DNA from: Kiritimatiellia bacterium
Lineage (GTDB): Bacteria; Verrucomicrobiota; Kiritimatiellia; PWTM01
Assembly: GCA_026417735.1 (NCBI GenBank)
Contig: JAOACR010000009.1
Span: forward strand, 353,298-417,297
Direction of reading: 5' to 3'
DNA length: 64,000 nt
Shown here: in pieces, positions 38,448 through 58,112 of the stretch
Numbering within the stretch: position 1 is the stretch's first letter
Layout: every line of letters starts with the position of its first letter
Made by a program: the position numbers and the translations under genes
The notes under the pieces: model-generated
Database searches by the model: none
What the model was told of the DNA's origin: nothing
What the model saw: only the letters and a program-made list of their open reading frames with translations

Positions 38448-38476
38448 TTGCCGGCTGGTCAGCCGCGGGGTATGAT
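38448..38476 (+). promoter_or_regulatory. putative sigma-70-type promoter for tRNA-Cys (TTGCCG-N17-TATGAT)
   Basis: TTGCCG at 38448-38453 and TATGAT at 38471-38476, spacer 17 nt, about 38 nt upstream of the tRNA 5-prime end. Pattern match only. Confidence 0.3.
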
Positions 38477-38514: not shown

Positions 38515-38589
38515 GGCGCGGTAGCCAAGTGGTAAGGCGGAGGTCTGCAAAACCTCTATGCATCGGTTCGATTCCGATCCGCGCCTCCA
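38515..38589 (+). tRNA. tRNA-Cys (anticodon GCA)
   Basis: Manually folded cloverleaf: acceptor stem GGCGCGG/CCGCGCC, anticodon arm GAGGT-CTGCAAA-ACCTC with GCA at positions 34-36, T-arm ATCGG-TTCGATT-CCGAT, discriminator T, encoded CCA. Confidence 0.9.
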
Positions 38590-38691: not shown

Positions 38692-40128
38692 ATGGCGTCC
38701 GATCGGGAATTGCGTCCGCTGGCCGTCGCCACCGCAACGGCGGCGCTGGTGATCGCCGCCGGTCTGTGGGGGATCGCGGACTGGCTCCGCCGCGAACCGC
38801 CGTTCGAGCTCGCCGAGCGCCTACCGGAACCCGAAACGCCGCCGGCCACCGCGCCGACGGTGGATCTGCGTGGCAGCTTTTCCGCGGGGCCCGGAACCCC
38901 CTCCGTGGTGACCTCTATGTGGCCCCGGTTCCGGGGACCGTTGGCCGATGGCATCTCGCGCGAGCCAGTTCCATTGGCGGCTCGGTGGCCCTCCAACGGA
39001 CCGCCCGTGCTCTGGCAGGTGGCCGTCGGCGACGGCCATGCAGGTCCGGCGGTGCGGCACGGCCGCGTTTACCTGCTCGACTACGACGAAGAACGCCGCG
39101 GCGACGTGCTGCGCTGCCTCTCGCTGGATGACGGGCGCGAGATCTGGCGACGGTTCTATGCGGTCGACATCCGCCGCAACCACGGCATCTCGCGCACGGT
39201 GCCGGCGGTCTCCGAGCGGGTGGTGGTTTCAATCGGCCCTCGCTGCCACGTGCTGTGCGTCGACGCCTTTAGCGGGGAGTTTCTGTGGGGAATGGACCTG
39301 GTGCGCGAGCAGGGTGCGAAGGAACCGCTCTGGTATACCGCCCAGTGCCCGCTGCTCGACGGAGAGGTTGCGGTGCTGGCGCCCGCCGGCCGCGTGCTGA
39401 TGCTGGGGGTCGAGGTCACCTCCGGGCGGGTGGTGTGGGAGACGCCCAACGAGGACGGATGGTCAATGTCCCATGGGTCGGTGATCCCCATGGAGTTTAA
39501 CGGCCGACGCATGTATGTGTATCCGGCGCTCGGCGGGCTCGTTGGCGTCGCCGCCGACGGGCCGCAGGTCGGCCGCATCCTCTGGAAAACCTCCGAGTGG
39601 CGCACCAGCGTGCAGGCGCCCTCCGCGCTGCCGCTGCCTGGCGGCCGAGTGCTGATCACTGCCGGTTACGGTGCCGGCAGCGCACTGTTCCAGCTGCGGC
39701 CCGACGGCGACCGCTTTCGCGCCGAGCTGGTCTGGCGAGCGGACAAAACCACGTTCGGATCGGAACAGCAGACGCCGCTGTTCCATCGCGACCATCTCTT
39801 CGCGGTGATGCCCAACGACGGCGGCGCGCTGCGGCGGCAACTGGTCTGCTATGATCTCGGCGGCCGGCTCGTGTGGTCGAGCGGTCCGCAGCGACGGTTC
39901 GGACTCGGACCACTGCTGATCGCCGCGGCGGACGACCGGTTGCTGGTGATGGATGACGAGGGTACGTTGACGATGGTGCGCGCGACGGCGGATGGCTACC
40001 ACGAGCTGGCCCGCGCCACCGTGCTGCCGAACGCCCGGGATTCCTGGGGTCCGATGGCGCTGGTGGATGGCCGTCTGCTGGCGCGGGAATCGACGCGGTT
40101 GGTGTGCCTGGACTTGCGGCGCCGATGA
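38692..40128 (+). CDS. membrane-anchored PQQ-like (BamB-type) beta-propeller repeat protein
   Basis: 478 aa. N-terminal anchor LRPLAVATATAALVIAAGLWGIADWL, then repeated beta-propeller blades (VLWQVAVGDGHAGPAVRHGRVYLLDYD, RVVWETPNEDGWSMSHGSV). First gene of a coupled operon; paralogous to 43233..44957. Confidence 0.7.
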   Translation: MASDRELRPLAVATATAALVIAAGLWGIADWLRREPPFELAERLPEPETPPATAPTVDLRGSFSAGPGTPSVVTSMWPRFRGPLADGISREPVPLAARWPSNGPPVLWQVAVGDGHAGPAVRHGRVYLLDYDEERRGDVLRCLSLDDGREIWRRFYAVDIRRNHGISRTVPAVSERVVVSIGPRCHVLCVDAFSGEFLWGMDLVREQGAKEPLWYTAQCPLLDGEVAVLAPAGRVLMLGVEVTSGRVVWETPNEDGWSMSHGSVIPMEFNGRRMYVYPALGGLVGVAADGPQVGRILWKTSEWRTSVQAPSALPLPGGRVLITAGYGAGSALFQLRPDGDRFRAELVWRADKTTFGSEQQTPLFHRDHLFAVMPNDGGALRRQLVCYDLGGRLVWSSGPQRRFGLGPLLIAAADDRLLVMDDEGTLTMVRATADGYHELARATVLPNARDSWGPMALVDGRLLARESTRLVCLDLRRR

Positions 40129-41078
40129 ACACCCTGCCCTCGATCGCGTTGTATGCGGCGCTCGCCGCGATCACGGCGGTCACCACGGTGGCACGCGAGG
40201 ACCCTGGTCCCGCCTTCACGCTGAACCTGGATCCGCTCAAAACGGTGCCTCCGCAGTGGCGCCGCTGGTACGAGCAATCACCTCTGCGCACCAATCTGTC
40301 CCACCTGACGGCCATCGCAATCGCAACGGACGACCGATTCGCGATCGTGGCCGGTCGAACGCTGATCCGCGGCACTCTCGGCGAACCACCGGAGCGCGAC
40401 ACCCGCACCGAACTGCCCGACGCCGGCCGCGCCGCTACCTTCGGACCGGACGGTCAGCTGTGGATCGCCCGCGACCGTGGATGGATCGCGTTTCCCCCCG
40501 GCGGCGACCCCGAAGAAGGCCCCCCCCTTTCCATCTCCAGCCGGATCACCTCGATCGCAGTGACCACGGGCAACGTCTGGCTTGCCGACGCTGGCGAACG
40601 GATCGTGTGGGTGTTCGACCGGACCGGCACGCTGCGCGCGCAGGTCCGCGGCGCAGACGCCCACGGCTTCGTGATCCCCAGCCCGCACTTCGACGTCGCA
40701 CCGGCCGGACCCGACTCGGCCTGGATCGTCAATCCCGGTGAGCTCCGCGTAGAGCTATGGACCGCCGACGGCCGCCGCCTTCGCAGTTGGGGACGCCCGG
40801 GTATGGACCTCGAGGGCTTTTGTGGCTGCTGCAACCCAACCGACATTGTCCTCCTGCCCGATGGCTCGGTCGCCACCGCGGAAAAGGGCATCGTGCGCGT
40901 GAAAGTCTACCGTGCCGACGGTTCGCTGGAGAGCGTCGCCGCGGCACCGGACCAGTTTGCGCCGGACACGGTCGGCCTAGACCTGGCATCGGATGCGGCC
41001 GGCCGGCTCTACGTCGCCGATCCTGCCCGGCGGGCGGTGCGGGTGTTCGCGCGCCGCGCAAAAACGGGGGCGCCATGA
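40125..41078 (+). CDS. NHL-repeat-like beta-propeller protein with CGCC motif, signal peptide
   Basis: Start ATG 40125 overlaps the upstream stop as ATGA. MNTLPSIALYAALAAITAVTTVA signal. NHL-like repeats (VWLADAGERIVWVFDRTG, RLYVADPARRAVRVF). Unusual EGFCGCCNPTD motif. Confidence 0.6.
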   Translation: MNTLPSIALYAALAAITAVTTVAREDPGPAFTLNLDPLKTVPPQWRRWYEQSPLRTNLSHLTAIAIATDDRFAIVAGRTLIRGTLGEPPERDTRTELPDAGRAATFGPDGQLWIARDRGWIAFPPGGDPEEGPPLSISSRITSIAVTTGNVWLADAGERIVWVFDRTGTLRAQVRGADAHGFVIPSPHFDVAPAGPDSAWIVNPGELRVELWTADGRRLRSWGRPGMDLEGFCGCCNPTDIVLLPDGSVATAEKGIVRVKVYRADGSLESVAAAPDQFAPDTVGLDLASDAAGRLYVADPARRAVRVFARRAKTGAP

Positions 41079-41302
41079 GACCGGAGCCCTCCACATCGGC
41101 CAGATCGCGGCGCGAGTGGCTTCGCAACGTCGCCCGCCTCGGCGCCGGGGCGGCGATTGTGGCCATAGTTGGCCGCGCCGCGCGCTCCTTCACGCCGGCG
41201 ACCGCGCCGGACGCGGCCAGCGGCTGCGCCCACTGCCCCTGGGCGGCCAACTGTCGAATCAGTCCACAACGATGTGCGCAGCGAGCAGCACCCCTTCGAT
41301 GA
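41075..41302 (+). CDS. small twin-arginine-signal protein with Cys motif (75 aa), hypothetical
   Basis: ATG 41075 overlaps the upstream stop as ATGA; its TGA at 41300-41302 overlaps the next ATG (41299) as ATGA. Product MRPEPSTSARSRREWLRNVARLGAGAAIVAIVG...GCAHCPWAANC has a Tat-like SRREWL plus hydrophobic stretch. Confidence 0.4.
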   Translation: MRPEPSTSARSRREWLRNVARLGAGAAIVAIVGRAARSFTPATAPDAASGCAHCPWAANCRISPQRCAQRAAPLR

Positions 41303-41919
41303 ACTCCGACTCTCCATCGTCGCCGACCTCTGACCGCCGGCAGTTCTTGCTGCGCGGCGCGGCCGCCGCCGCCGGATTTGCGGTCGCCACACTCGCCGGC
41401 GCAGCCGCGCGCGGTGCCGCCTCCCGCGACCGCATGGTATGGCAGATCGACCCTCACAAGTGCATCCAGTGCGGTCGCTGCATGACGAACTGTGTGCTGA
41501 CACCGTCCGCGGTGAAATGCGTGCACACCTACGCGATGTGCGGGTACTGCCGGTTCTGTTTCGGCTATTTCGACCCTGGCGCGGCGGAGCTCAACAGCGC
41601 CGCGGAAAATCAGATGTGCCCGACCGGCGCGATCCGTCGCCGTTTCATTGAGCCGCCATACTACGAGTACTCGATCATCGAACAGCTGTGTACCGGCTGC
41701 GGCAAGTGCGTGAAGGGCTGTAACACTTTCGGCAACGGCTCCCTGCAGCTTCAGATCCTCCATGACCGCTGCGCGCAGTGCAATGAGTGTGCGATCGCAC
41801 GCCGCTGTCCCGCACAGGCGATCGAGCGCGTTCCGCTGAGGGCGTGGAACCGGATGAAGGCCGAATTCGGGCCGGCCGGCGCCGCGTGGACAAACCCGGA
41901 GCCCCCGGCGCATGCGTGA
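41299..41919 (+). CDS. Tat-exported 4Fe-4S polyferredoxin (NapG-like periplasmic ferredoxin)
   Basis: Start ATG 41299 (ATG 41272 alternative) within track ORF 40993..41919. Tat motif SDRRQFLLRGAAAAAGFAVATLAGAAA. Cysteine clusters CIQCGRCMTNC, CGYCRFC, CTGCGKCVKGC and CAQCNECAIARRCP. Confidence 0.7.
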   Translation: MNSDSPSSPTSDRRQFLLRGAAAAAGFAVATLAGAAARGAASRDRMVWQIDPHKCIQCGRCMTNCVLTPSAVKCVHTYAMCGYCRFCFGYFDPGAAELNSAAENQMCPTGAIRRRFIEPPYYEYSIIEQLCTGCGKCVKGCNTFGNGSLQLQILHDRCAQCNECAIARRCPAQAIERVPLRAWNRMKAEFGPAGAAWTNPEPPAHA

Positions 41920-43222
41920 GTATCGTCTCCGCACGACCCGGCGGATCAGTATCGCGGTGCTGCTTGTCACCGCGATCGCAGTCGCCGCGGAGCAACGGTT
42001 CCCAAAACCAGATTTCAAGTCCGGCTACACTCAGCCCGTCTATCGCCCCCCTCTGCCCGCACGCTCCGCCGCACGTGAGTGGGCGGACGTCGGGTTGCTG
42101 GCCACCGCGTTGGTCGCCGCCGCATGGCTAGCGCTGCGCGCGCGCTCGCGCCGGGGCCTGTGGGCGCTCTCCATCGGCGCGCTCGTATGGTTCGGTCTGG
42201 TCCGCCAGGGCTGCATCTGCCCGGTGGGCTCAATCCAGAACGTCGCGCTTGCGCTCGCTGACCGTACCCATGCAATCCCGCTGACCACCGCGCTGATCTT
42301 CGCACTGCCGCTGATGGCGGCACTGTGCTGGGGACGGGTCTTTTGCGCGGCGGTGTGTCCGCTCGGCGCACTCCAGGACCTGGTGGTCCTGCGGCCGGTG
42401 CGGCTGCCGCGACCGCTGAACCGCGCGCTCGCGATGCTGGGCCCCACCGTGCTCGCGTTCGGCCTGGCGCTCACCTTCGCCGGCGCAGGCTTCTGGATCT
42501 GCCGCTACGACCCCTTCGTTCCGCTCTACCGGCGCAGCGGTTCGGCCGGCATGATCGCCACCGGCATCGCGTTGCTGGTGCTCGGCACCGTCGTGGCTCG
42601 GCCCTACTGCCGATATTTCTGCCCCTACGGCGTGCTGCTGGGATGGTGCTCGCGCCTTGCCCGCCGCCACCTCACCATCACCCCGGACGAATGCATCGAG
42701 TGCCGGCTCTGCGAGACCTCCTGTCCATTCGATGCGATCCGCGCCCCCGAGCCGCCCCATCCGGACCGCGCCGCCGCGCGCCGTGCGCTCGTTCGCGCGC
42801 TGAGCCTCGCGCCGCTTCTGATCGCAGCAGCCGCCGGCGCGGGGCGCACAGTGCTGCTGGCGCTCGCCCCACACGTTCACCCTGCCGTCACGCTTGAGGC
42901 GCAGCTGCTCGCCGAAGAGGCCGCCGGCACGCCCGACCTCACTTGGGAAACCCGCGCGTTCCGCCTCTCCGGCGCCCCTCGCGAGACGGCGACCACCGCG
43001 GCCGCCACCGCCCGCGGAAGGCTCGCCTCCGCGGGCCTTTGGGCCGGCGGTTTCGTCGGCCTGGTCGGCGTCACGCGCATCGTCGCCTCGCTGCGGCGCA
43101 GCGACCGTCGCGACTGGGTGCCGGACCGCGGCGAATGCCTCAGCTGCGGCCGGTGCTTCGCGCATTGCCCCCGTGAGTACGTCCGGCTCGGCCGGCTCGA
43201 CGGTCCGATCGGAAACCCGTAG
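41912..43222 (+). CDS. NapH/MauN-type membrane-bound polyferredoxin (CX3CP motifs plus 4Fe-4S clusters)
   Basis: 436 aa polytopic protein. CICPVGSIQ, RVFCAAVCPLGALQD and RPYCRYFCPYGVLLGW are NapH-family CX3CP blocks. CIECRLCETSCP and CLSCGRCFAHCP are ferredoxin motifs. Start overlaps the upstream gene by 8 nt. Confidence 0.75.
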   Translation: MREYRLRTTRRISIAVLLVTAIAVAAEQRFPKPDFKSGYTQPVYRPPLPARSAAREWADVGLLATALVAAAWLALRARSRRGLWALSIGALVWFGLVRQGCICPVGSIQNVALALADRTHAIPLTTALIFALPLMAALCWGRVFCAAVCPLGALQDLVVLRPVRLPRPLNRALAMLGPTVLAFGLALTFAGAGFWICRYDPFVPLYRRSGSAGMIATGIALLVLGTVVARPYCRYFCPYGVLLGWCSRLARRHLTITPDECIECRLCETSCPFDAIRAPEPPHPDRAAARRALVRALSLAPLLIAAAAGAGRTVLLALAPHVHPAVTLEAQLLAEEAAGTPDLTWETRAFRLSGAPRETATTAAATARGRLASAGLWAGGFVGLVGVTRIVASLRRSDRRDWVPDRGECLSCGRCFAHCPREYVRLGRLDGPIGNP

Positions 43223-43232
43223 AGAAAACCGC

Positions 43233-44957
43233 ATGAGCGCCGACCGCACTCCCGCCAGCCGCACGCTCGCCGCCGCGCTGCGCGGTCTGCTCTTCGGTGC
43301 CGGTTTCGTCTGCGCGGTCGCCGGAGCAGTCGCGCTGCTCAACTGCGTGCAACTGCGTCGGGCGGACCCGTTGAACTCGCCGCTGCGGCTTGAAGCGATC
43401 CGCGCCGCACAGTCGCAACCGGCCAACGCTGATCTCGTCGCCGAAGCGCGACGTCTCGACCTGCTGGCACGCCGAGCATTTTTCTCCGCGCAAACGCTCG
43501 CGGAGCAGGCCGGCCGCCTGCTGTGGATTGGTGCGGCGCTGATCCTCGGTGCGATCGCGGGCGCGCGCTGGCTCGAGCCGCGCGTCGCGCCGCCCCCCGC
43601 GCCGTTGCCAACCCCCGATGTCGGCGAACGCGAAGCGCGGGCGGCCCGCCGCGCCGTGGCCGCCTACCTCGCGTTGCTGATCGCCGGCGGTGCCGCGGCC
43701 GCCCGTACGCTCCGCGCGCGGCCGGCAGGGGCCCCCGGCGACGTCGCCCCCCCACCCACGACGAACCAGCCGGCACTCCCCGAGGACTCCGCACTGGCCG
43801 AGGCGTGGCCCTCCTTTCGCGGCCATTTCGGCCGCGGCGGCCGCGACAGGCCCGCCCCCACCCGTTGGGATGTACCCACCGGCCGCAACGTCCGATGGAG
43901 CATCGAGGTGCCACGGCCCGGATTCAGTTCCCCAATCTTCTGGAACAGCCGCGTCTTTCTCACCGGCGCGGACACCTCCACCGCCGAACTCTACGCGTTC
44001 TGCGCGGACACCGGCCGACTGCTCTGGCGGCATGAGGCGCGCGATGTGCCCGGATCCCCCCGCACCCCGCCCAAGACCAGCGAGGAAGTGGGTCTGGCCG
44101 CACCAACACCCACCACCGACGGCCTGCGCGTGTACGCAATGTTTGGCACCGGCGATCTCATCGCCTGCGACCTTGAGGGCCGCCGCCTGTGGGCCCGCCA
44201 TCTCGGCTCGCCGAAAAATCCCTACGGCCACTCCTCCTCTCCGATCGCAGTGCGCGGTCGCCTGATCGTCCAGTTCGACGACGAAACCGGCGGCCGACTG
44301 CTGGCGCTGGACGGGGCCACCGGCCGCACGATTTGGGAAACCCGCCGGGACGTTCGGCCCGGCTGGTCCACGCCGGTCGCCGCAGAACACAACGGCCGGC
44401 TTCGAATCGGGGTGCTCGCACAGCCGTTCTTCGCGGTCTACGACTGGGCGGACGGGCGCGAGCTGTGGCGCGTCCCCGAGCTTGAGGCGGAGATCGGCAC
44501 CTCTCCCGCGTTTGCGGACGGTCGTTGGTATGCGGGCAATGACAACACGCGGTTCGTCGCGGCCGACGACGTCGACGGCCGCGTACTCTGGGAGACCGAC
44601 GAGGATCTCCCGGACGTCGCCTCTCCGCTGGTCTGGCGCGGGCTGGTCGTTTTGGCGGCCAGCTCGGGGATCGTCACCGCGCGCGATGCGGCAACCGGCG
44701 AAAAGTTGTGGAGCCAAGAATGGGAGGAAGGGTTCTACGCCTCGCCAGTGGCGGCGGGTGAGGCGATCTACTTGCTCGATCGCGCGGGTCGCGCACGGGT
44801 GGTGCGTGCTGCGCGCCAGTTCGAGCTGATCGCCGAGAACCCGGTGGGCGAGGAGTGCGGCGCAACGCCCGCACTTGCGGGCGACCGTCTCTACCTGCGT
44901 ACTCGACACCGGCTGATCGCCATCGAAGAGGCAACGACCGCCCCCACCGCGCCATGA
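43233..44957 (+). CDS. membrane-anchored PQQ-like beta-propeller repeat protein (second copy)
   Basis: Start ATG 43233 within track ORF 42894..44957. N-terminal helices LLFGAGFVCAVAGAVALL and LLWIGAALILGAIAGA, then propeller repeats (RLLWRHEARD, RRLWARHLGS, RTIWETRRD, RELWRVPELE, RVLWETDED, EKLWSQEWEE). Confidence 0.7.
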   Translation: MSADRTPASRTLAAALRGLLFGAGFVCAVAGAVALLNCVQLRRADPLNSPLRLEAIRAAQSQPANADLVAEARRLDLLARRAFFSAQTLAEQAGRLLWIGAALILGAIAGARWLEPRVAPPPAPLPTPDVGEREARAARRAVAAYLALLIAGGAAAARTLRARPAGAPGDVAPPPTTNQPALPEDSALAEAWPSFRGHFGRGGRDRPAPTRWDVPTGRNVRWSIEVPRPGFSSPIFWNSRVFLTGADTSTAELYAFCADTGRLLWRHEARDVPGSPRTPPKTSEEVGLAAPTPTTDGLRVYAMFGTGDLIACDLEGRRLWARHLGSPKNPYGHSSSPIAVRGRLIVQFDDETGGRLLALDGATGRTIWETRRDVRPGWSTPVAAEHNGRLRIGVLAQPFFAVYDWADGRELWRVPELEAEIGTSPAFADGRWYAGNDNTRFVAADDVDGRVLWETDEDLPDVASPLVWRGLVVLAASSGIVTARDAATGEKLWSQEWEEGFYASPVAAGEAIYLLDRAGRARVVRAARQFELIAENPVGEECGATPALAGDRLYLRTRHRLIAIEEATTAPTAP

Positions 44958-47371
44958 CCCGGGCCGCCCAGCGTCCACCCGCCGCTCCACCCGACCTGAG
45001 CGAAGTCGACCGCATCGTCAACGCGATCGGTCGTTCCCCCGAGCAGGCGCTGCCGCTGCTGCAGGCGGTGCAGGCGCGCTTCGGTTATCTGCCCGAGGCA
45101 GTGCTGCGCCGAATCTGTGAAATCACCGAAATCCGTCCCGCGGACCTGTGGAGCGTCGCGACCTTCTATCCGCAGCTGCGACATCGGCCCGCAGGACGAC
45201 ATTCGATCTGCGTATGCGTCGGGACCGCATGCCACGTGAAGGGCGCGGAACGGGTCTACGAGGCGATTGCGCGCGAACTCCGACTGCCAGCGGGGGAGGA
45301 CACGGACGCCGCCGGTGAGTTCACTGTTCGCAAGGTCGCCTGTCTGGGCTGTTGCACGCTGGCGCCAGTGGTGATGCTCGACCGCGTCACCTACGGCCAT
45401 CGCACCGCGGACAACATCCGCGAGATGCTGGATGATTTTACCGCCCGACCGGCCGACCGCGAGGGGGACCCCCTCGCCGAGGCCACGCCGATCGACCCGC
45501 CCGAAGCCGCCGGAGAGATCCGGATTGGTCTGGGCTCCTGCTGCATCGCCGGCGGCAGTGCGGCGGTCGAATCAGCGCTGCGCACGGCGGTGCGATCGCT
45601 CGGCGTACCGATCCGCATCCGGCCGGTCGGATGCGTCGGGATGTGCCACCGTACGCCCCTCCTCGAAGTCGTGCGCCCCGGCGCCGAACCCGTGCGCTAC
45701 GAGCGGGTCCGCGCCGCGGATGTCGAAGCGATCGTGCGCCGCCACTTCAGCCCCGGGCGATGGCGTCGCTGGCGGGCGCAGACGGCGGACGCATTGGACG
45801 AGTGGCTCGGACGGGGGCGGGGGGCGGTGGGGCCAGCCCCCGTGCTCGACCCCCGTGACGGGCCCGTCCAAGCGTTCCTATGCCGCCAGCTTCATATCGC
45901 CACCGAGGCGTGCGGTGCGCTCCATCCGCTGGATCTGGATCAGTACCGCGCCGGCGGCGGCCTGCGCGCGCTGGAGGACTGCCTCGCCCGCCGTTCTCCG
46001 GATGAAGTGATCGCCGCGATCGAGGCCGCCGGCCTCCGCGGCCGCGGCGGCGCCGGATTTCCCACCGGCCGAAAGTGGCGCGCGGTGCGCGACGCACCGG
46101 CCGGTGACCGCTACATCATCTGTAACGGCGACGAGGGCGACCCCGGCGCGTTCATGGACCGCATGCTCTTCGAGTCCTATCCCTATCGTGTGCTCGAAGG
46201 GATGATCATCGCCGCCTGGGCGGTTGGCGCGCGGGAAGGTATCCTCTACATTCGTGAGGAGTATCCGCTCGCGGTGCGACGCGTGCAGGCCGCAATCGAC
46301 CGGCTGCGCGACGCTGGCGTGCTCGGGCCGGACATTCTGCGTTCCGGGGTGTCCCTCGAATTGCGGATTGTGCAGGGCGGCGGCGCGTTCGTCTGTGGGG
46401 AGGAGACCGCGCTGATCGAGTCCATTCAGGGTCGCCGAGGCTCGCCCGTGCTGCGCCCTCCGTTCCCTGCACAACGCGGCTTCCGTGGCGCGCCGACGCT
46501 CGTCAACAACTGCGAGACGCTCGCGATGGTGCCTTGGATTCTGCGGCACGGACCCGCCGCGTTCGCGGCGATCGGCACCGCCCACAGCAAGGGCACCAAG
46601 GTGTTCGCGCTGGCCGGCAAGGTGGCGCGGGGCGGCCTGATCGAGGTGCCGATGGGCATGACGCTGCGCGAGATCATCGAGGAGATCGGCGGCGGCGCCG
46701 CAAACGGGCGCCCGTGGAAAGCAGTGCAGGTCGGCGGGCCGTCCGGTGGTTGCGTGCCCGCGACGCTCGGCGACACGCCCGTTGACTACGAGGCGCTCAC
46801 CGAAGTGGGCGCCATGATGGGCAGCGGAGGGCTCGTCGTGCTCGACGACACCGACTGCATGGTGGACGTCGCGCGCTATTTTCTCTCCTTCACCTGCCGC
46901 GAGTCGTGCGGGAAGTGCACCCCCTGCCGCATCGGCACCCGCCGCATGCTCGACATCCTCGACCGCCTCTGCGAAGGGCGCGCGGCGCCGGACGACCTCG
47001 CGCGACTGGAGGAGCTCGCCGAGACCACCCGCCGCCAGAGCCTCTGCGGCCTGGGTCGAACCGCGCCCAACCCGGTGCTGACGACGCTGCGCTACTTCCG
47101 CGACGAGTACGAGGCGCACCTGCGCGGCATTTGCCCTGCCGGCCGCTGCGTGCACCTCATCGCGTACGAGGTCGGCGCCGAGTGCATCGGCTGCACCCGC
47201 TGCGCACAGGTCTGCCCCGTCGTGGCGATCCGGCCGGACCCGATGCGCCGCCATGTGATTGACGGTGGTTTGTGTGTGCGGTGCGATCTGTGCCGGACTG
47301 CCTGTCCGACAGGTGCGATCCGGATTGTGCCCCGGCAAACGGCGTCGGCCCCCGGAGCGGCGGAGCGATGA
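44954..47371 (+). CDS. NAD(P)H-binding iron-sulfur flavoprotein, NuoE-like plus NuoF-like fusion (HndC/HoxF/FdsB-type)
   Basis: Start ATG 44954 overlaps the upstream stop as ATGA. Thioredoxin-like 2Fe-2S block CVCVGTACHVKG...VACLGCCTLAP, second ferredoxin-like block SCCIAGGS...VGCVGMCH, NuoF core GLRGRGGAGFPTGRKW and GGGAFVCGEETALIESIQG, ESCGKCTPCRIG, then C-terminal 2x 4Fe-4S (CIGCTRCAQVCP, CVRCDLCRTACP). Confidence 0.8.
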   Translation: MTRAAQRPPAAPPDLSEVDRIVNAIGRSPEQALPLLQAVQARFGYLPEAVLRRICEITEIRPADLWSVATFYPQLRHRPAGRHSICVCVGTACHVKGAERVYEAIARELRLPAGEDTDAAGEFTVRKVACLGCCTLAPVVMLDRVTYGHRTADNIREMLDDFTARPADREGDPLAEATPIDPPEAAGEIRIGLGSCCIAGGSAAVESALRTAVRSLGVPIRIRPVGCVGMCHRTPLLEVVRPGAEPVRYERVRAADVEAIVRRHFSPGRWRRWRAQTADALDEWLGRGRGAVGPAPVLDPRDGPVQAFLCRQLHIATEACGALHPLDLDQYRAGGGLRALEDCLARRSPDEVIAAIEAAGLRGRGGAGFPTGRKWRAVRDAPAGDRYIICNGDEGDPGAFMDRMLFESYPYRVLEGMIIAAWAVGAREGILYIREEYPLAVRRVQAAIDRLRDAGVLGPDILRSGVSLELRIVQGGGAFVCGEETALIESIQGRRGSPVLRPPFPAQRGFRGAPTLVNNCETLAMVPWILRHGPAAFAAIGTAHSKGTKVFALAGKVARGGLIEVPMGMTLREIIEEIGGGAANGRPWKAVQVGGPSGGCVPATLGDTPVDYEALTEVGAMMGSGGLVVLDDTDCMVDVARYFLSFTCRESCGKCTPCRIGTRRMLDILDRLCEGRAAPDDLARLEELAETTRRQSLCGLGRTAPNPVLTTLRYFRDEYEAHLRGICPAGRCVHLIAYEVGAECIGCTRCAQVCPVVAIRPDPMRRHVIDGGLCVRCDLCRTACPTGAIRIVPRQTASAPGAAER

Positions 47372-48954
47372 GCGTGCGTGTGATCGTGGATGGCCGGGCG
47401 GTCGAGCTGCCCGATGGCGCCACGCTTCTGGAGGCGACCCGCGCACTGGGCATCCGTGTGCCAACCCTTTGCCACCGCGACGGTCTTCCTCACTACACCT
47501 CCTGTATGGTCTGCGCAGTGCGCGAACTGTCGGGCGGCCGCCTGCTCCCCGCCTGCTCGTACCCGGCCACCGACGGCATGGAGGTGGACGCCTCGTCCGA
47601 CGAAGTCCGTGCGGCCCGGCGCCGTGTGCTCGAGCTGCTGCTGAGTGAACACGTCGGCGACTGCGAAGCGCCCTGCCGGCGCGCCTGCCCGGCGCACCTG
47701 CGTATCCCCGAGCTGCTGCGCGACGCCGCCCGCGGTGCATGGGCCCAAGCCGCCCGTCTCGCCGCGGAGGATCTTGTGCTGCCCGCCGCGCTCGGCCGCA
47801 TCTGCCCCGCCCCCTGCGAACGAAGCTGCCGACGCGCCCAGCACGATGCTGCGTTGCCGATCCGCGAGCTGCACCGGCGGCTCGGCGAATCGCCGGAACT
47901 GGCCGGCGCCCGGCAGCGCCCCGCCGCCACATCGCCGCGCACAGCCCGCGTGACGGTTGTCGGTGCCGGACCCGCCGGCCTCGCTGCTGCTGCGTTTCTC
48001 CGTCGCGCCGGCGTCGAGGTGACCTTGCGCGATCGCGCCCTCCAGCCGGGAGGCGCGCTGCGCGATCCGGCGGTGTCCGATCGGCTGCCGGCCCACGTTC
48101 TCGACGCGGAAATCCGCGAGGTGCTCGCCGCCGGCATTCGGTTCGAACCGGGCGCCGACGTGCTCGAACCGGGCGCGCTCGATCGCTGGATCGAAAACGC
48201 CGATGCGGTCGTGCTCGCTTGCGGTGCGCTGGACGCGCGCTCCATCGCCGCGCTCGGCCTCGAGAGTGGACCCCGCGGCGTCCGCGCGGATGCGAACACC
48301 CGGCAAACCTCGCGACGCGGTGTGTTCGCAGCGGGCGCGATGGTTCAACCGATGCGCTTGGCGGTACGCGCGGTGGCGGATGGTCGTCTTGCCGCAGAGG
48401 CGGTCCTCGTCTGGCTCGAGCTGCGCCCGGCCCCCCCCTGGCCCGTCCGATTCGACAGCCGCATCGGTCCTCTCCACCCCAGCGAAGTGGCACAATGGCT
48501 GCCCGATGCCTCGCCTGCCTCGCCCGGCTGGCCGGACACGGAGAGCGGTACCGCGCTGGACGATCGCGCCGCCGCGGATGCGCGCCGCTGCCTCGGCTGC
48601 GACTGCCGCAAAGCCCGCAGCTGCCGCCTGCGCCGCCTTGCCGACGAGTATCGCGCATCCCCCGCCCGCTTCGCGGCCACCGCGCGCCCCCCTGTTATCC
48701 TGCGCCGAGACCATCCGCGCCTGGTCTACGAACCGGGCAAGTGCATCCACTGCGGCATCTGCGTGCGTCTCGCCGCGCGATCTCGCGGCACGATGACGTT
48801 CCAGCGCCGCGGTTACGAACAACAGGTCGCGCCCGCGTTCAACAATGGCCTGGACGCGGGGCTGGGTGCCGCGGCGGACGAAGCAGTTCGCGCCTGTCCC
48901 ACCGCCGCGCTCGCTTTTCGCACTTGGGAACCCATCTCCGGAATATCTCGATGA
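47368..48954 (+). CDS. 2Fe-2S ferredoxin (NuoG N-terminal-like) fused to GltD-like FAD/NAD(P)-binding oxidoreductase with C-terminal Fe-S motif
   Basis: Start ATG 47368 overlaps the upstream stop as ATGA. MSVRVIVDGRAVELPDGATLLEATRALGIRVPTLC is the 2Fe-2S N-terminus. VTVVGAGPAGLAAAAFLRRAGVEVTLRD is a dinucleotide-binding fold. CLGCDCRKARSC and CIHCGICVRLA are C-terminal cysteine motifs. Confidence 0.7.
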   Translation: MSVRVIVDGRAVELPDGATLLEATRALGIRVPTLCHRDGLPHYTSCMVCAVRELSGGRLLPACSYPATDGMEVDASSDEVRAARRRVLELLLSEHVGDCEAPCRRACPAHLRIPELLRDAARGAWAQAARLAAEDLVLPAALGRICPAPCERSCRRAQHDAALPIRELHRRLGESPELAGARQRPAATSPRTARVTVVGAGPAGLAAAAFLRRAGVEVTLRDRALQPGGALRDPAVSDRLPAHVLDAEIREVLAAGIRFEPGADVLEPGALDRWIENADAVVLACGALDARSIAALGLESGPRGVRADANTRQTSRRGVFAAGAMVQPMRLAVRAVADGRLAAEAVLVWLELRPAPPWPVRFDSRIGPLHPSEVAQWLPDASPASPGWPDTESGTALDDRAAADARRCLGCDCRKARSCRLRRLADEYRASPARFAATARPPVILRRDHPRLVYEPGKCIHCGICVRLAARSRGTMTFQRRGYEQQVAPAFNNGLDAGLGAAADEAVRACPTAALAFRTWEPISGISR

Positions 48955-48991
48955 CCCGCGCCTTGCCCGCACCCTTGACAGGAGCCGCCTG

Positions 48992-51979
48992 ATGAACCCA
49001 ACCGTTGTCGCCGCGCTCCTATGGAGCGTTGCTGCCGTTGCTTCCTCCGCCCCGCCGCTCGAAGCGCGCTTCCGCTCACCTCCGCGCGAACATCGGCCAT
49101 GGGCCTACTGGTGGTGGCTCAAGGGCAACGTGGACGAAGAGACGATCACGCGCGATCTCGAGGCGATGAAATGGGCCGGCTTTGGCGGTCTGCTGCAGTT
49201 TGACGTGCGCGGCTACCATGAGGCCGTCGTGCCACCGCCCCCCGAACGCACACCCTATATGAGCGCACGCTGGCGGGAACTGATGAGACATGCGCTGCGC
49301 GAGGCGGACCGGCTCGGCCTTGAAGTCAGCATCAATCTCAGCATGTGCGCCGGCGCGCTGATGGGGCCCACGACCGCCGGCGCGGACGCCCCAAAGAAGC
49401 TGATCTGGACCGGCACCGAAGTCGTCGGCCCCGCCCGGCTCGACTGCCGGCTTCCGGCCATCCCGGGCGAAGGCGCGGTGGAAATCGCGCTGCTCGCGGT
49501 GCGCCTCCGCGAGAGCTCCCCACCGGAACCACCGGCCGTGCACGCACATCCAGCGCCCGCTTGGCCGCCCCATTGGCGCTCCGATCTCCCCGCCACCAAC
49601 GCGCCCACCCCGGTGGCCGGCGAGCCGCTCGACCTGACCGACAAGCACGACGCCGAAGGACGCCTCACCTGGGAAATCCCTCCCGGCCGATGGGCGGTGA
49701 TCCGTTTCGCCTCCGTTCTGGCCGTCGGCGACCCCGTTCACCACGGTCAACTCGTCACTCCGTTCGACGTGGACGTGCTCGACGCCGACGCGGTGCGGCG
49801 GCACTTCGAGCGCCTCGGCGGTGAGCTGTTGAAAGACGCCGGGCCGCTGGCGGGTCGCACCCTCACTCATTTCTACAGCGTGAGCTGGGAAGGTGCCGCG
49901 CCGACCTGGACCGCCCGTTTCGAAGAACAGTTTCGAAATGCTCGCGGTTACGCTCTTCGTCCGTGGCTACCGGTGCTCGCCGGGTTCGAGGTCGGCGGAT
50001 CCGAGGCCGCGCGCCGCTTTGTGAACGATTATCACGCAACGCTCGCCGAACTGATGATGAACAACTTCTACGGCGAACTGCAGCATCGCTGCCACGCCGT
50101 GGGTCTCAAATGGCATGCCGAATCCGGCGGCCCGTGGAACCGGCGTCTCCCCACCTTTGCGCGCGCCGATCAGCTCGCCTTTCTCGGGCGCACCGACATG
50201 CCGCAGGGCGAATTCTGGTTCACCGGCGGGCGCGCCATCGGTCGACCGCCCGAGTTCAACCGCCCCGCCGCAATGGCCGCGCACATCTACGGCCGACCGC
50301 TGGCCGCCGCAGAAGCCTTCACCCACATGGTGCAGCACTGGTCAGAGCATCCCGCCGCACTGAAACCTCTCGCCGACATCGCCTTCTGCGACGGCATCAA
50401 CCACCTGATCTGGCACACCTTTACCGCCTCGCCGCCGGAGTTCGGTCTGCCGGGCGTCGAATATTTCGCCGGCAGCCATCTGAACCCCAACGTCACCTGG
50501 TGGCCGTTCGCCCGCCCGTTCATCGAGTACCTCGCACGCTGTCAGACAATGCTGCGCCACGGCCGTCCGGTCGCCGACCTCGCCGTGTTCATCGGCGAAC
50601 ACCCCTACCAACACTGGGGCCGCGGCTCACAGTGGAGCGAACGTGCGACACTCCATCCGCCCGCCGGCCACACCTATGACCTCGTCAACATCGAGGTGCT
50701 CTGCTCGCGCCTCGACGTGGTCGACGGCGGACTCCGGTTGCCGGAGGGGCTCGGCTATCGTGCACTGGTCGTGGACCTCGAGCAGGAGACCCTCCGACCC
50801 GAGCCGCTCCGGCGGATTCTCGAACTCACCGAACGCGGCGCAACCGTCATCCTCGGGCAACGCCGCCCCACCGCCTCCAGCAGCCTCGCCGGCTGGCCCG
50901 ACGCTGATACCGAGGTGCGCCGTCTAGCCGATGTGCTGTGGGGTGCCGTGAACGCAGCGTCGCCGGAGGAGCCCGTGCGGCTCGGTGCAGGTCGTGTGTT
51001 CCGCCGCAGTTCCGTCGCCGACGCGTTTGCCCGCCTCGGCGTTACCCCCAATGTGGAGGGCCCCTTCGAGTTCGCACACCGCACCGATGCGGAGACGGAC
51101 GTGTACTTCCTCACCGGTCACCGCCCCGGCGACGCGATTTTTCGGGTGACCGGTCGCCGCCCCGAACTCTGGGACCCCGTCACCGGCACAATTCGCCCGC
51201 CGCACGGCTGGTCCCCCACGGCCGACGGCAGAACACGCGTTCATCTCCGCCTGCCCACCAACGGCAGCACATTTGTGGTCTTCCGCGAACCCGCCCGAGG
51301 CTTGCCCCCCTACGAGCCACCCCCGCCCGACGTCGAGATCCTCAGCCTCACCAACGGCCATGTCGAAGTCCGGGTGTGGACCGCTCAGCCCGTTGAGTGG
51401 ACGCTCCGCCACGGCCATACCGTGCACCTCAACCCCAACACGCCCCCCCCACTGGAGCTGACCGGCCCATGGACCGTTGTGTTCGAATCGGGCCGGGGCG
51501 CGCCGCCGCAGCTGGTGATGGAGCGGCTGACCGACTGGACCGAACATCCCGATCCGAATGTGCGGTTTTTCTCCGGCCGTGCGACGTACCGTCACACCAT
51601 CGAGCTCGATGCAGATCGGGCCTCCTCTCCGGCCCGCCTCGAACTCCATCGCGTGGGTGTGATCGCCCGTGTCACCGTGAACGGCCGGAACGCGGGCATC
51701 CTCTGGACCTTCCCCTGGGAGGTTGAGCTCACGGGACTTCTACGCGCGGGCCCCAACGACATCGAAATCGAGGTCGCCAACGTGTGGGTCAACCGGCTGA
51801 TCGGTGACGCCTCGCTGCCGCCGGAAAAACGGACTACCCGGACCAACGTCGCTCTGCAGCCCGGTGAGCGCACCGTCCGGATCTATCAGGGATTTGGCGC
51901 GAACGATCCGCTCGTGCCCTCCGGACTCCAGGGGCCAGTTCGCTTGCGGTTCGGCCGGGATGTCTCCGTCCGGCTGTGA
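48992..51979 (+). CDS. large secreted glycoside hydrolase-like protein (paralog of 8346..12323; possibly GH106-like)
   Basis: Start ATG 48992 (MNPTVVAALLWSVAAVASSAPP signal; GGAG 8 nt upstream) within track ORF 48845..51979. FRSPPREHRPWAYWWWLKGNVDEETITRDLEAMKWAGFGG. C-terminal LELHRVGVIARVTVNGRNAGILWTFPWEVELTGLLRAGPNDIEIEVANVWVNRLIGD. Confidence 0.75.
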   Translation: MNPTVVAALLWSVAAVASSAPPLEARFRSPPREHRPWAYWWWLKGNVDEETITRDLEAMKWAGFGGLLQFDVRGYHEAVVPPPPERTPYMSARWRELMRHALREADRLGLEVSINLSMCAGALMGPTTAGADAPKKLIWTGTEVVGPARLDCRLPAIPGEGAVEIALLAVRLRESSPPEPPAVHAHPAPAWPPHWRSDLPATNAPTPVAGEPLDLTDKHDAEGRLTWEIPPGRWAVIRFASVLAVGDPVHHGQLVTPFDVDVLDADAVRRHFERLGGELLKDAGPLAGRTLTHFYSVSWEGAAPTWTARFEEQFRNARGYALRPWLPVLAGFEVGGSEAARRFVNDYHATLAELMMNNFYGELQHRCHAVGLKWHAESGGPWNRRLPTFARADQLAFLGRTDMPQGEFWFTGGRAIGRPPEFNRPAAMAAHIYGRPLAAAEAFTHMVQHWSEHPAALKPLADIAFCDGINHLIWHTFTASPPEFGLPGVEYFAGSHLNPNVTWWPFARPFIEYLARCQTMLRHGRPVADLAVFIGEHPYQHWGRGSQWSERATLHPPAGHTYDLVNIEVLCSRLDVVDGGLRLPEGLGYRALVVDLEQETLRPEPLRRILELTERGATVILGQRRPTASSSLAGWPDADTEVRRLADVLWGAVNAASPEEPVRLGAGRVFRRSSVADAFARLGVTPNVEGPFEFAHRTDAETDVYFLTGHRPGDAIFRVTGRRPELWDPVTGTIRPPHGWSPTADGRTRVHLRLPTNGSTFVVFREPARGLPPYEPPPPDVEILSLTNGHVEVRVWTAQPVEWTLRHGHTVHLNPNTPPPLELTGPWTVVFESGRGAPPQLVMERLTDWTEHPDPNVRFFSGRATYRHTIELDADRASSPARLELHRVGVIARVTVNGRNAGILWTFPWEVELTGLLRAGPNDIEIEVANVWVNRLIGDASLPPEKRTTRTNVALQPGERTVRIYQGFGANDPLVPSGLQGPVRLRFGRDVSVRL

Positions 51980-52080
51980 TTCGGCGCGCGGCCTTTGGCG
52001 GTACGCGGTGCCCCGAAGTCCCGTGCGCGTTGCCGCGTCATCTTGTTTTTCTCGGTCCCAAATGGTTCGATCTGCGCAAT

Positions 52081-53142
52081 GTGAATCCGCCCTCGCGCAC
52101 CTCCGACTTTGACTACGCATTGCCGGCCGAGCTGATCGCGCAGCAGCCGGTGGAACCGCGCGACGCAGCGCGGATGCTCGTGCTGGGGGCCGACGGCGCG
52201 CTGTCGCACCGGCTGGTCCGCGAGCTACCGGCCCATCTGCTGCCGGGCGACGTGATGGTCGTCAACAACTCCCGTGTGATTCCAGCTCGCACCTGGGCGC
52301 GGCGCGAAACCACCGGAGGGCGTGTGGAACTGCTTTGGATCGAGCCGCGGGATGACGGCTCGTGGACCGCACTCGTCCGCTCACGGCGGCCAGTGAGGCC
52401 GGGCGACCGGCTACGGATCGGAACGCAGGTGGTGGTTGTGGAAGACGGGCGCTTCGCGGACGGCACCATCGCGGTGCGCCTCGAGGGAGACGCCGACGTG
52501 CTCGAACTGCTCGAGCACGAAGGGCATACACCGCTGCCACCCTACATCCGGCGCGGACGGGACGAGCCGGCCGATCGCGAGCGCTACCAGACCGTGTACG
52601 CCCGTCGCCCCGGTTCGGTCGCGGCCCCGACCGCCGGCCTGCACTTCACCGAGGAGTTGCTCTGCACGCTGCGGGAGCGTGGGGTGCAGATCGTCGAGCT
52701 CACGCTGCACGTCGGGCCGGGCACGTTCCGGCCGGTGCGCGAGGAGGACCCCGCTCGTCATTCGATGCACGTCGAACGCTTTGAAATCCCCGAGGCCACC
52801 GCGGAGGCCATAAGCCGGGCGCGGAGCGAAGGCCGCCGCGTGCTCGCGATCGGCACCACGGTGGTCCGCGCGCTCGAAAGTGTCGCCGACGAGCACGGGC
52901 GCGTTCGGCCTGGTGCCGGCCGCACCGCATTGTTCATCCGACCCCCCTACGAATTTCGTGTGGTGGATCTGCTGCTCACCAACTTTCACCTGCCGCGCTC
53001 AACGCTGCTGATGCTGGTGTGTGCGTTCGCAGGCACCGACCGCGTTCTCGCCGCGTACCATACCGCCATCGAACATCGCTATCGCTTCTACAGCTACGGC
53101 GACTGCATGCTGCTGGCCCGTCCCGCCCGCCGCATTGAATGA
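52081..53142 (+). CDS. queA: S-adenosylmethionine:tRNA ribosyltransferase-isomerase
   Basis: GTG 52081 (SDFDYALPAELIAQQP) within track ORF 51976..53142. MLVLGADGALSHRLVRELP, GHTPLPPYIRR, TAGLHFT and LLTNFHLPRSTLLMLV are QueA blocks. Confidence 0.85.
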   Translation: MNPPSRTSDFDYALPAELIAQQPVEPRDAARMLVLGADGALSHRLVRELPAHLLPGDVMVVNNSRVIPARTWARRETTGGRVELLWIEPRDDGSWTALVRSRRPVRPGDRLRIGTQVVVVEDGRFADGTIAVRLEGDADVLELLEHEGHTPLPPYIRRGRDEPADRERYQTVYARRPGSVAAPTAGLHFTEELLCTLRERGVQIVELTLHVGPGTFRPVREEDPARHSMHVERFEIPEATAEAISRARSEGRRVLAIGTTVVRALESVADEHGRVRPGAGRTALFIRPPYEFRVVDLLLTNFHLPRSTLLMLVCAFAGTDRVLAAYHTAIEHRYRFYSYGDCMLLARPARRIE

Positions 53143-53256
53143 ACACGTGGCGCGGAAGCGCCAGTCCACCCACACGGCCGCCAGTTGCAGTCCGCAAGCG
53201 GAACCGGCATACTCTTTCGCCTTTTTCGTCTCGAACCCGAGACCCAGAACACGCGC

Positions 53257-55903: not shown

Positions 55904-56617
55904 ATGTCCGCCGGCGAATTTTCCGGTTCATTTGCAGTAAACGGCATGGTCTGGCTGGCGGGGTTTGCGCCGGGGTCTCTCGCCTTGCAGTGGCATCTCG
56001 GCGAAACGCTATGGACCGAGCTGCGGGCGGCGAGTCCCTCCGGCACCCTCGCACTAATACTGCGACGACAGGAGGGGCCATCCACCACCACCGGCGGCGC
56101 GCTGACGCTGCTGGGCGCCGCACCCGCCGGTTTTCGTCGGCTCGAAGCGGCTCCAGGAACCTATGACGGAGAATTCGGCTGGCTCGACCCGGCGGGGGAG
56201 TTCACCCGGCTCGCGCAGCTCGGACCGGCCCGACCGCTGCCCGCCGCGCCCGCCGTCGACATCTCGCTAGCCTTGATGGCACCTTCCGGCGCGTCCGTCG
56301 GTGCCGCCCTTCAACGCATGGGCAAAGTGGAAAGGGCGGCCAGCGTCACGTGGATCCGAAGGCCGCAAGCGTTTGCACGGGTTTGCCCAGCGCTGCCGAC
56401 CAACCCCGTGCCAGCGGGCTCGTCGTTCCCGCCAATCCCCGCGACACCTCCGGTGGTTGGAGAGGCCGGCCCGGCTGCGGACTGGACGACGAATGGCGAT
56501 GAACCAGCGCCGGCTGCGACAGCCGGGCAAGCATGGCGCGCATCGGGCGGGCATCAACCGCCGCCGGAGGTCGGTTGGCCGACCGCTACCGCCGCCAACA
56601 CGCTGGGAGTGATCTGA
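55904..56617 (+). CDS. hypothetical protein (Ala/Pro-rich), translationally coupled to the GH57 gene
   Basis: ATG 55904 with GGAGA upstream. Its stop overlaps the GH57 ATG as TGATG. No recognisable domain by eye. Confidence 0.4.
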   Translation: MSAGEFSGSFAVNGMVWLAGFAPGSLALQWHLGETLWTELRAASPSGTLALILRRQEGPSTTTGGALTLLGAAPAGFRRLEAAPGTYDGEFGWLDPAGEFTRLAQLGPARPLPAAPAVDISLALMAPSGASVGAALQRMGKVERAASVTWIRRPQAFARVCPALPTNPVPAGSSFPPIPATPPVVGEAGPAADWTTNGDEPAPAATAGQAWRASGGHQPPPEVGWPTATAANTLGVI

Positions 56618-58107: not shown

Positions 58108-58112
58108 CGGCC

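Follow-up and report, generated by a model that had tools for sequence, protein, structure and literature searches.

Among the genes in a window of 64,000 nucleotides from a Kiritimatiellia bacterium (contig JAOACR010000009.1, positions 353,298 to 417,297; 'the window' below means this whole stretch), a frame of 75 codons lies between a gene for an NHL-repeat protein and a gene for a polyferredoxin. The locus raises the question of whether this small open reading frame (ORF) is a gene and, if so, what its product might do beside the ferredoxin. The answer proposed here is that, on balance, the small protein is probably an Fe-S or metal mini-subunit of a module made up of a NapG/RnfB-like ferredoxin and a NapH-like protein, inserted through the twin-arginine translocation (Tat) system, anchored by its uncleaved signal and facing the periplasm.

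The small ORF as a gene

The ORF and its two junctions are the following.

41075..41302, plus strand: small ORF of 75 aa and a stop codon, belonging to an unnamed family of proteins of 58-92 aa with a Tat-like signal and a CX2CX5C motif
41075..41078, plus strand: ATGA overlap of the NHL gene stop and the small ORF start (gcgccATGAgacc)
41299..41302, plus strand: ATGA overlap of the small ORF stop (TGA 41300-41302) and the ferredoxin start (ATG 41299) (ccttcgATGAactc)

The translation of 41075-41302 (+), MRPEPSTSARSRREWLRNVARLGAGAAIVAIVGRAARSFTPATAPDAASGCAHCPWAANCRISPQRCAQRAAPLR followed by a stop, is identical to the residues quoted in a preliminary description of this DNA, which had put the frame forward as an unannotated ORF and had noted the ATGA overlap at both of its ends, as seen in the junctions above. 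The window has a GC content of 68 % and contains 82 ORFs of at least 50 aa within 10 kb, most of them spurious, so a length of 75 codons is not in itself evidence of a gene. A family profile built from 40 members without the window sequence matched only the small ORF among the 959 six-frame ORFs of the window (E=3.5e-12), and a profile made from distant members only, mostly Bacteroidota, matched it at E=7e-6. GC content at third codon positions (GC3) was 0.88 over codons 1-59, with an average of 0.82 for the in-frame genes of the window; off-frame windows of 59 codons had a mean of 0.66 and reached 0.88 or more in only 3.6 % of cases. Without the small ORF, an operon otherwise free of gaps would hold an untranslated hole of 220 nt. 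An Rfam scan of 40800-41600 returned no RNA family, and promoter and terminator scans found neither element inside the operon around the small ORF. These comparisons of sequence indicate that the small ORF is almost certainly a real gene and a member of the family.

The exact sequence of the small ORF was not found in a 15-billion-protein collection that does contain the adjoining NCBI ferredoxin, in agreement with its description as unannotated. As a single-sequence query against a 5.8-billion-protein index it also gave no match, because it is too divergent and too short for the word index. Its homologues were obtained by synteny, via ferredoxin loci.

A ferredoxin start further upstream in another frame, which the preliminary description had named as a point against the gene, was ruled out by the annotated start of the 206-aa protein and by homologue N-termini of the same length. 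A possible alternative start lies 27 nt earlier in the ferredoxin frame, at ATG 41272, and with it the overlap with the small ORF would be 31 nt. The last 16 codons of the small ORF (41252-41302, after the third conserved Cys) have a GC3 of 0.25. They encode the C-terminal tail, the least conserved part of the protein, and lie directly 5' of the ferredoxin start; either their AT-biased synonymous sites may keep the ferredoxin initiation region open, or the ferredoxin may start 27 nt earlier, over the tail. Pairwise dN/dS was 0.3-0.6 with dS mostly saturated, pointing to weak constraint outside the motifs. The two least-diverged pairs gave 0.3-0.5, and with dS saturated in most pairs the ratio is uninformative. 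As far as the alignments can tell, the small protein is evolving fast outside a few constrained islands.

Conservation and family size

In the nearest syntenic contigs, whose ferredoxins are 78-82 % identical to that of the window, the NHL-ferredoxin interval of ~230 nt always contains an ORF. These interval ORFs carry RR(E/D)WLR, a hydrophobic stretch and CxxC(PW)xxxC...C, and in one contig the ORF is annotated as a 76-aa gene, with both ATGA overlaps also present. The frame is thus conserved at related loci, where the preliminary description had seen its absence as telling against the gene.

A ferredoxin-profile scan, taking one genome per species, gave 80 ferredoxin loci from Kiritimatiellia, Lentisphaerae, Verrucomicrobiota, Planctomycetota, Bacteroidota, Calditrichota, KSB1 and Firestonebacteria. 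Presence or absence was scored with a family hidden Markov model (HMM) built without the window sequence. A separate small ORF was found in 61 of the 80 loci, representing at least six phyla; it lies directly upstream of the ferredoxin in 56 of these and has moved upstream of the NHL gene in the other 5. In 4 of the 80 loci the small module is fused in frame to the ferredoxin, in 7 the small ORF was not detected, and the remainder were truncated or matched only through the ferredoxin's own signal. The relocated ORFs (L045, L054, L062, L069 and L079) precede the NHL gene, 1.0-1.6 kb from the ferredoxin on its 5' side, and this arrangement occurs in some Verrucomicrobiota, including metagenome-assembled genomes (MAGs) of Akkermansiaceae. 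Among the loci without a detectable small ORF (L039, L046, L049, L060, L084, L085 and L086), the NHL protein of L084 ends in ...ACGQCDADCPLKL, and those of L046 and L085 (both Planctomycetota) have an extra ECC motif.

An exhaustive HMMER search of 1.84 billion representatives returned 1,922 proteins at E<=1e-3 and 133 at E<=1e-10, giving a family of ~1,900 when counted as 50 %-identity representatives. The best 150 matches are nearly all 58-92 aa long, and where the source names family members at all, the name is 'hypothetical protein'. Three members were picked independently of the ferredoxin, and all three fall within the same cluster of 8-10 genes (L088, L089 and L090). Searches of Pfam, NCBIfam and PDB sequences with the ORF, seven relatives and 150 members returned no family, only sub-threshold Tat-signal matches and scattered noise, and the PDB search yielded no solved structure related by sequence to the small-protein family. 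By its profile matches, the small protein is a member of a large undescribed family without a Pfam or NCBIfam model. A literature search on the gene cluster found nothing relevant.

It is very improbable that the frame encodes no functional peptide and is a chance ORF, a coupling spacer or a decaying partial duplication of the 5' end of the ferredoxin gene. Such a reading could draw on the abundance of spurious ORFs at this GC content, on the GC3 of the tail, on the dN/dS values, on the resemblance of the family to the ferredoxin N-terminus described below and on the fact that the ORF was not called in the source annotation. However, the family-profile match is unique in the window, the Cys are invariant across phyla and ~1,900 representatives, the gene has been kept after rearrangement and is also found fused in frame, and GC3 is high over codons 1-59. 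The earlier judgement that the arrangement was unlikely by chance is sustained by the profile match, the positional conservation, GC3 and the ATGA style of the junctions.

Probable partnership with the ferredoxin

The neighbour on the 3' side is the following.

41299..41919, plus strand: Tat-signal polyferredoxin, 206 aa, 17 invariant Cys, ~four [4Fe-4S] motifs, NapG/RnfB-like

This protein, read from 41299, is identical to an NCBI-annotated protein (P0001) of a Kiritimatiellia MAG. Its homologues number in the thousands, their N-termini are equal in length and the family carries a near-invariant RR signal. The homologues are labelled 'RnfB' by the Joint Genome Institute (JGI), and there are weak matches to TIGR01944.

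Four natural in-frame fusions were identified (family HMM E 9e-11 to 8e-19), each joining the small module (RR helix and CX5CX2CX5C) to the ferredoxin core.

L044, 3779-4456: fusion of the small module and the ferredoxin core
L064, 2529-3275: fusion of the same two parts
L068, 3815-4489: fusion of the same two parts
L072, 3893-4645: fusion of the same two parts

In the fused proteins the module occupies the site of the ferredoxin's own Tat signal, and its last Cys lies ~11 residues before VWQLDP-CxxCxxC. Another protein, P0115, resembles a further fusion with a truncated start. Weaker 'fused' matches to the HMM (E ~1e-5; L018, L028, L043, L048, L051, L066 and L076) were rejected, being the ferredoxin's own Tat signal and first Cys motif. 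Because the two genes are naturally fused, the small protein and the ferredoxin are expected to work jointly, both on one side of the membrane. The gene fusions make it very likely that the small protein works physically with the ferredoxin.

Anatomy of the family

Statistics of the family were taken from 232 unique members, and residue conservation from alignments of 34-150 members. In the window protein the conserved elements are the following.

41105..41125, plus strand: twin-arginine motif S11-R-R-E-W-L-R17; the first Arg, R12, is conserved in at least 90 % of the family
41135..41176, plus strand: R21, uncharged h-region/helix L22-G33, and R34, from the AlphaFold2 helix 12-36 and the family statistics
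41225..41275, plus strand: C51-x2-C54-x5-C60-x6-C67, of which C51, C54 and C60 do not vary within the family

The n-region of the family follows the consensus (T/N)-R-(R/K)-x-F-(I/L), with RR in 174 of the 232 members and RK in 44. A further Arg is conserved nine residues later (188/232). The uncharged stretch that follows is 15-16 residues long in 207 members, with conserved L/G positions, and is succeeded immediately by a basic residue (R/K) in 177. AlphaFold2, run with 150 sequences, placed a helix at residues 12-36 with a predicted local distance difference test (pLDDT) score above 90.

A linker of ~8-10 residues separates the helix from the Cys motif, which has the form C-x5-C-x2-C-x5-C (spacing 5-2-5) in 217 of the 232 members. 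LP(E/Q)A usually comes next, and a short charged tail completes the protein. Across phyla the last three Cys do not vary, and the fourth migrates. In the window protein Pro45 takes the place of the usual upstream Cys (CX5 before CxxC), so CX5CX2CX5C is not present there; the clade to which it belongs (4 sequences) has the spacing 2-5-6, with a conserved downstream C67 in place of the first Cys.

Two other assignments were considered from this anatomy and rejected. No radical-SAM or other maturase that would fit a precursor of a ribosomally synthesized and post-translationally modified peptide (RiPP) is encoded within the cluster, and no lipobox precedes the first Cys as a lipoprotein would have.

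Predicted targeting and retention of the signal

The motif S11-R-R-E-W-L-R17 fits the Tat consensus S/T-R-R-x-F-L-K. In a profile-profile comparison with hhalign, the small family (A4) aligned to the N-terminus of the ferredoxin (A1, residues 5-67) with a probability of 92.7 % and E=4.3e-7, the match covering the ferredoxin's Tat signal and first Cys motif. This likeness is compatible with a partial duplication of the 5' end of the ferredoxin gene or with the fission of a fused ancestor. The only curated models matched recurrently were those for Tat signals, TIGR02811 by 37 and TIGR01409 by 23 of the 150 members, all below threshold; PF10518 was matched weakly by 6 of the 150. The mean Kyte-Doolittle hydropathy of the helix is 1.9 in the small family and 1.7 in the ferredoxin signals. 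Membrane helices that depend on Tat combine low hydrophobicity with positive charge after the helix (PMC5449189), a rule matched by the modest hydrophobicity of the family helix and the basic residue following it. Taken together, these features suggest that the small protein is likely to be Tat-targeted.

An AxA site was found in 14 of the 232 small-family members, compared with 52 of 119 ferredoxin signals. Given a helix of fixed length with conserved residues and the near absence of AxA, we lean slightly towards retention of the helix as an uncleaved signal anchor. The small protein would then more likely be membrane-anchored than soluble in the periplasm. Cleavage would instead release a soluble periplasmic Cys peptide of ~35-40 aa, acting as a free metal/cofactor carrier or a loosely bound subunit, and we regard this as unlikely. 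It would fit the Tat-like n-region of the window protein, its short h-region of 12 aa and a possible small-residue site at G33-R-A35|A36, as well as the profile likeness to the ferredoxin signal, which is itself probably cleaved. On the other hand, apart from the scarcity of AxA, a fixed helix length and conserved residues are unusual in a discarded signal, and the mature product would amount to merely ~30-40 aa with a low-complexity tail.

The cysteine motif and its predicted side of the membrane

The same arrangement of Cys is known from E. coli RseC, whose cytoplasmic N-domain has a CX5CX2CX5C motif in which only the last three Cys are conserved and the first, at the position taken by Pro45 in the window protein, is dispensable; a [4Fe-4S]-like cluster, sensitive to O2, can be reconstituted in the protein, which also interacts with RsxB/RsxD (PMC11729352). 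In C. ljungdahlii, rseC adjoins rnf (PMC9124969). For the small protein, an Fe-S cofactor is proposed because of the invariant Cys, the Tat-type signal, redox neighbours that are all Fe-S proteins and the precedent of RseC. On these grounds, there is about an even chance that the conserved Cys would serve as Fe-S ligands.

A Tat-type signal implies folding or cofactor loading ahead of export. This speaks against the rather doubtful alternative that the Cys are not ligands of such a cofactor and instead form structural or redox-active disulfides, as in CxxC thiol-disulfide chemistry, or coordinate Zn or Cu in the periplasm. In favour of that alternative are the CxxC core, an AlphaFold2 model that does not position four Cys around a cluster, and the lack of significant similarity to Fe-S family models. 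Against it, in addition to the signal, every redox gene in the neighbourhood encodes an Fe-S protein, the RseC motif, conserved in the same way, gives a [4Fe-4S]-like chromophore on reconstitution, and the carriers are mostly anaerobes from sediments and digesters.

RseC also bears on orientation. The identical motif in RseC is cytoplasmic and acts on Rsx/Rnf (PMC11729352), so the small protein could conversely be a plain membrane anchor with its Cys module in the cytoplasm, serving the Fe-S domains of the NapH-like or NuoEF-like proteins. The balance of charge across the helix and the occurrence of RK, RN and RQ variants would suit this inverse topology. However, the fusions put the module between the sole export signal and a ferredoxin core whose unfused homologues have a near-invariant RR signal, and the n-region resembles the ferredoxin Tat signal at profile level. 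We consider a cytoplasmic Cys module improbable and retain the periplasmic orientation as the predicted one.

The gene cluster

Besides the small ORF and the ferredoxin, the cluster in the window (38692-48954) comprises the following genes.

38692..40128, plus strand: PQQ_2/BamB-like beta-propeller, 478 aa, with which the cluster begins in the window
40125..41078, plus strand: NHL-repeat beta-propeller, anchored at its N-terminus and carrying the motif GFCGCCNP; its ATG at 40125 shares ATGA with the end of the PQQ_2 gene
41912..43222, plus strand: NapH/MauN-like membrane polyferredoxin, 436 aa, with Fer4_5 and TIGR02163 matches; conserved downstream of the ferredoxin
43233..44957, plus strand: second PQQ_2/BamB-like beta-propeller, conserved in position
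44954..47371, plus strand: NuoE-NuoF fusion flavoprotein with a C-terminal 2x[4Fe-4S]; ATGA overlap with the PQQ_2 gene, conserved in the cluster
47368..48954, plus strand: Fer2_4/Fer4_20/Pyr_redox_2 protein, an NAD(P)H oxidoreductase resembling GltD/NfnB; overlaps the end of the NuoEF gene by ATGA, also in L089

Five of the seven operon junctions have the ATGA form: PQQ_2/NHL, NHL/small ORF, small ORF/ferredoxin, PQQ_2/NuoEF and NuoEF/GltD-like (at 40125, 41075, 41299, 44954 and 47368, respectively). These 4-nt overlaps imply that translation is tightly coupled from one end of the cluster to the other. The ferredoxin and NapH-like genes overlap by 8 nt (ATGCGTGA), and the longest NHL ORF begins at GTG 40104. 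In the independently chosen loci the order is PQQ_2 (one to four copies), NHL, small ORF, ferredoxin, NapH-like, PQQ_2, NuoE-NuoF fusion and Fer2_4/Fer4_20/Pyr_redox_2, and the cluster of 8-10 genes recurs in the same order in Bacteroidota, in the Planctomycetota-Verrucomicrobiota-Chlamydiota (PVC) group and in other phyla. It is apparently undescribed.

The NHL protein matched no specific curated family. Its motif G(F/L)(C/S)GCCNP is strongly conserved, reading EGFCGCCNPTD in the window, and a CCNP-type motif was found upstream of the ferredoxin in 70 of the 80 loci. The NapH-like protein scored 39.8 bits with TIGR02163, far below the cutoff of 213.

Several features of the surroundings were also recorded. 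A tRNA-Cys (GCA) gene lies at 38515-38589 (+), ~100 nt upstream of this operon of Cys-rich Fe-S proteins, and the only sigma-70-like promoter match of the region (38448-38476) precedes it. At L090 the cluster is intact apart from an inserted IS200-type Y1 transposase gene (10448-10969), which separates the second PQQ_2 gene from the NuoEF-like gene. The genes on the 3' side of the cluster in the window are unrelated to it (GH106 alpha-L-rhamnosidase, QueA, EF-G, a GH57 branching-enzyme-like protein and starch/glycogen synthase), and downstream on the minus strand a 1,269-aa protein with PATR (passenger-associated transport) repeats is encoded. The coordinates listed for these downstream genes are 48845-51979, 51976-53142, 53185-55338, 56533-59585 and, on the minus strand, 60182-63991.

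Proposed mechanism

In the mechanism we propose, the Cys module would first be loaded with a cofactor, in the most plausible case an Fe-S cluster, while still in the cytoplasm. Insertion by Tat would follow, in which the N-terminal helix would stay uncleaved as an anchor and the Cys module would come to lie on the periplasmic side. The small protein would then bind the Tat-exported four-cluster ferredoxin encoded alongside, tethering it beside the NapH-like polyferredoxin and/or supplying one more redox centre. Electrons would pass along the resulting chain between the NuoEF/GltD-like module, which would oxidise NAD(P)H in the cytoplasm, and the beta-propellers in the periplasm.

Several observations weigh against this reading, in addition to the GC3 of the tail and the dN/dS values given above. 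Translation, export, the cofactor and binding to the ferredoxin are all predicted from sequence. The failure to detect the small ORF in 7 of the 80 loci by the family HMM implies that it is dispensable to the cluster. RK occurs in 19 % of the family, together with a few RN, RQ and KK variants, for which weaker Tat recognition is expected. The uncharged stretch of the window protein is just 12 residues long, compared with the 15-16 typical of the family, and with a net charge of ~+3 on either side of the helix in the family the positive-inside rule cannot assign a topology. The window ORF reached no curated Tat threshold: its match to TIGR02811 scored 16.1 bits (cutoff 48.45; E=0.01; residues 8-42), and TIGR01409 and PF10518 did not match it at all. 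In AlphaFold2 the Cys region had a pLDDT of ~53 even with 150 sequences. In the comparison with RseC, hhalign aligned the small family in register (columns 43-62 with residues 18-37; C26/C29/C35) but over 20 columns and with a probability of 6 %, and PF04246 (RseC_MucC) had no match in the window and was matched by 2 of the 150 members at E ~0.9.

Among the functional suggestions of the preliminary description, the Tat signal held at profile level, through the hhalign result and the recurrent weak matches to Tat models, and the CxxC...C motif proved to be the invariant core of the family. The idea of a subunit of the operon gained strength from the in-frame fusions to the ferredoxin, and no support was found for the suggested chaperone.

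Implications

As a wider and much more tentative idea, the small protein might be the periplasmic counterpart of RseC. The CX2CX5C Fe-S mini-module would then adapt or anchor polyferredoxins of the RnfB/NapG type in general, whichever membrane face they occupy, and here it would act within an undescribed and widespread transmembrane electron-export machine of anaerobic PVC bacteria and Bacteroidota. In that machine the chain would run from the NuoEF/GltD-like module to the NapH-like protein, on to the small protein with the Tat-ferredoxin, and then to the NHL(CGCCNP) and PQQ_2 propellers. No new principle is involved; a widespread small protein has been systematically overlooked, and the RseC-type motif in it is unexpected.

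The gene was missed in this genome, and a family model would close a systematic gap covering ~1,900 50 %-identity clusters. The family marks, and helps to delimit, a conserved redox cluster of 8-10 genes in at least six phyla of mostly anaerobic bacteria, and the naturally split and fused forms suggest which proteins touch. For the RseC-type motif it offers a second and simpler system, a 30-residue module beside a defined ferredoxin, in which the function of CX2CX5C could be addressed. Cultured carriers of the family include Marinifilum fragile/flexuosum, Sunxiuqinia elliptica, Gaoshiqia sediminis and Perlabentimonas gracilis.

Comparison with known systems

The closest likeness in motif is to RseC/MucC and the N-terminal Cys domain of RnfF (PF04246), which share the CX5CX2CX5C pattern, the form of a small membrane protein and the tie to an RnfB-type polyferredoxin system; AlphaFold is likewise unsure of the Cys region of RseC. 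However, RseC is ~150-160 aa long, faces the cytoplasm with a motif N-terminal to two transmembrane helices and lacks a Tat-like signal, whereas the small protein has 60-80 aa, a single Tat-like helix ahead of the motif and a side predicted to be periplasmic. The likeness is at the level of the motif only, and homology with RseC is not established.

The fused forms share with RnfB/RsxB the order of N-terminal helix, short Cys module and polyferredoxin. Unlike here, the RnfB motif (PF04060) is CX2CX4CX16C and lies on the cytoplasmic side, and PF04060 had no match at E<=1 in the 150 members; in the present family there is a Tat-like signal, and the anchor and Cys part are usually a separate gene. 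The NapG/NapH quinol dehydrogenase (PMC5449189 and references therein) resembles the cluster in placing a Tat-exported four-cluster ferredoxin beside a NapH-type polyferredoxin, but Nap operons have no small Cys protein, no NHL/PQQ_2 propellers and no NuoEF/GltD-like genes.

Small size and targeting find parallels in three further groups. The 'formate dehydrogenase region TAT target' proteins (TIGR02811) are Tat-signal proteins of ~66 aa encoded beside Tat-exported redox enzymes, but only the signal part matches (residues 8-42), the C-terminal motif and context differ and the window cluster contains no formate dehydrogenase. Signal-anchored Fe-S proteins of the Tat pathway, such as Rieske (PMC5449189), have an uncleaved RR-helix of modest hydrophobicity with positive charge and a cofactor domain outside; the folded [2Fe-2S] domain of Rieske comprises ~130 aa, compared with ~30-40 extracytoplasmic residues here. 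The FeoB-associated Cys-rich membrane protein (PF12669) is similarly tiny, with one transmembrane helix and a short Cys-rich tail, but weak matches were found in just 5 of the 150 members (best E=0.018), and motif and context differ.

Judged by unmatched models and differing architectures, the small protein is outside PF04246, PF04060, TIGR02811 and PF12669. By analogy, it may be viewed as a cross between the RseC motif and the N-terminal anchor and Cys module of RnfB, with targeting like that of signal-anchored Tat substrates.

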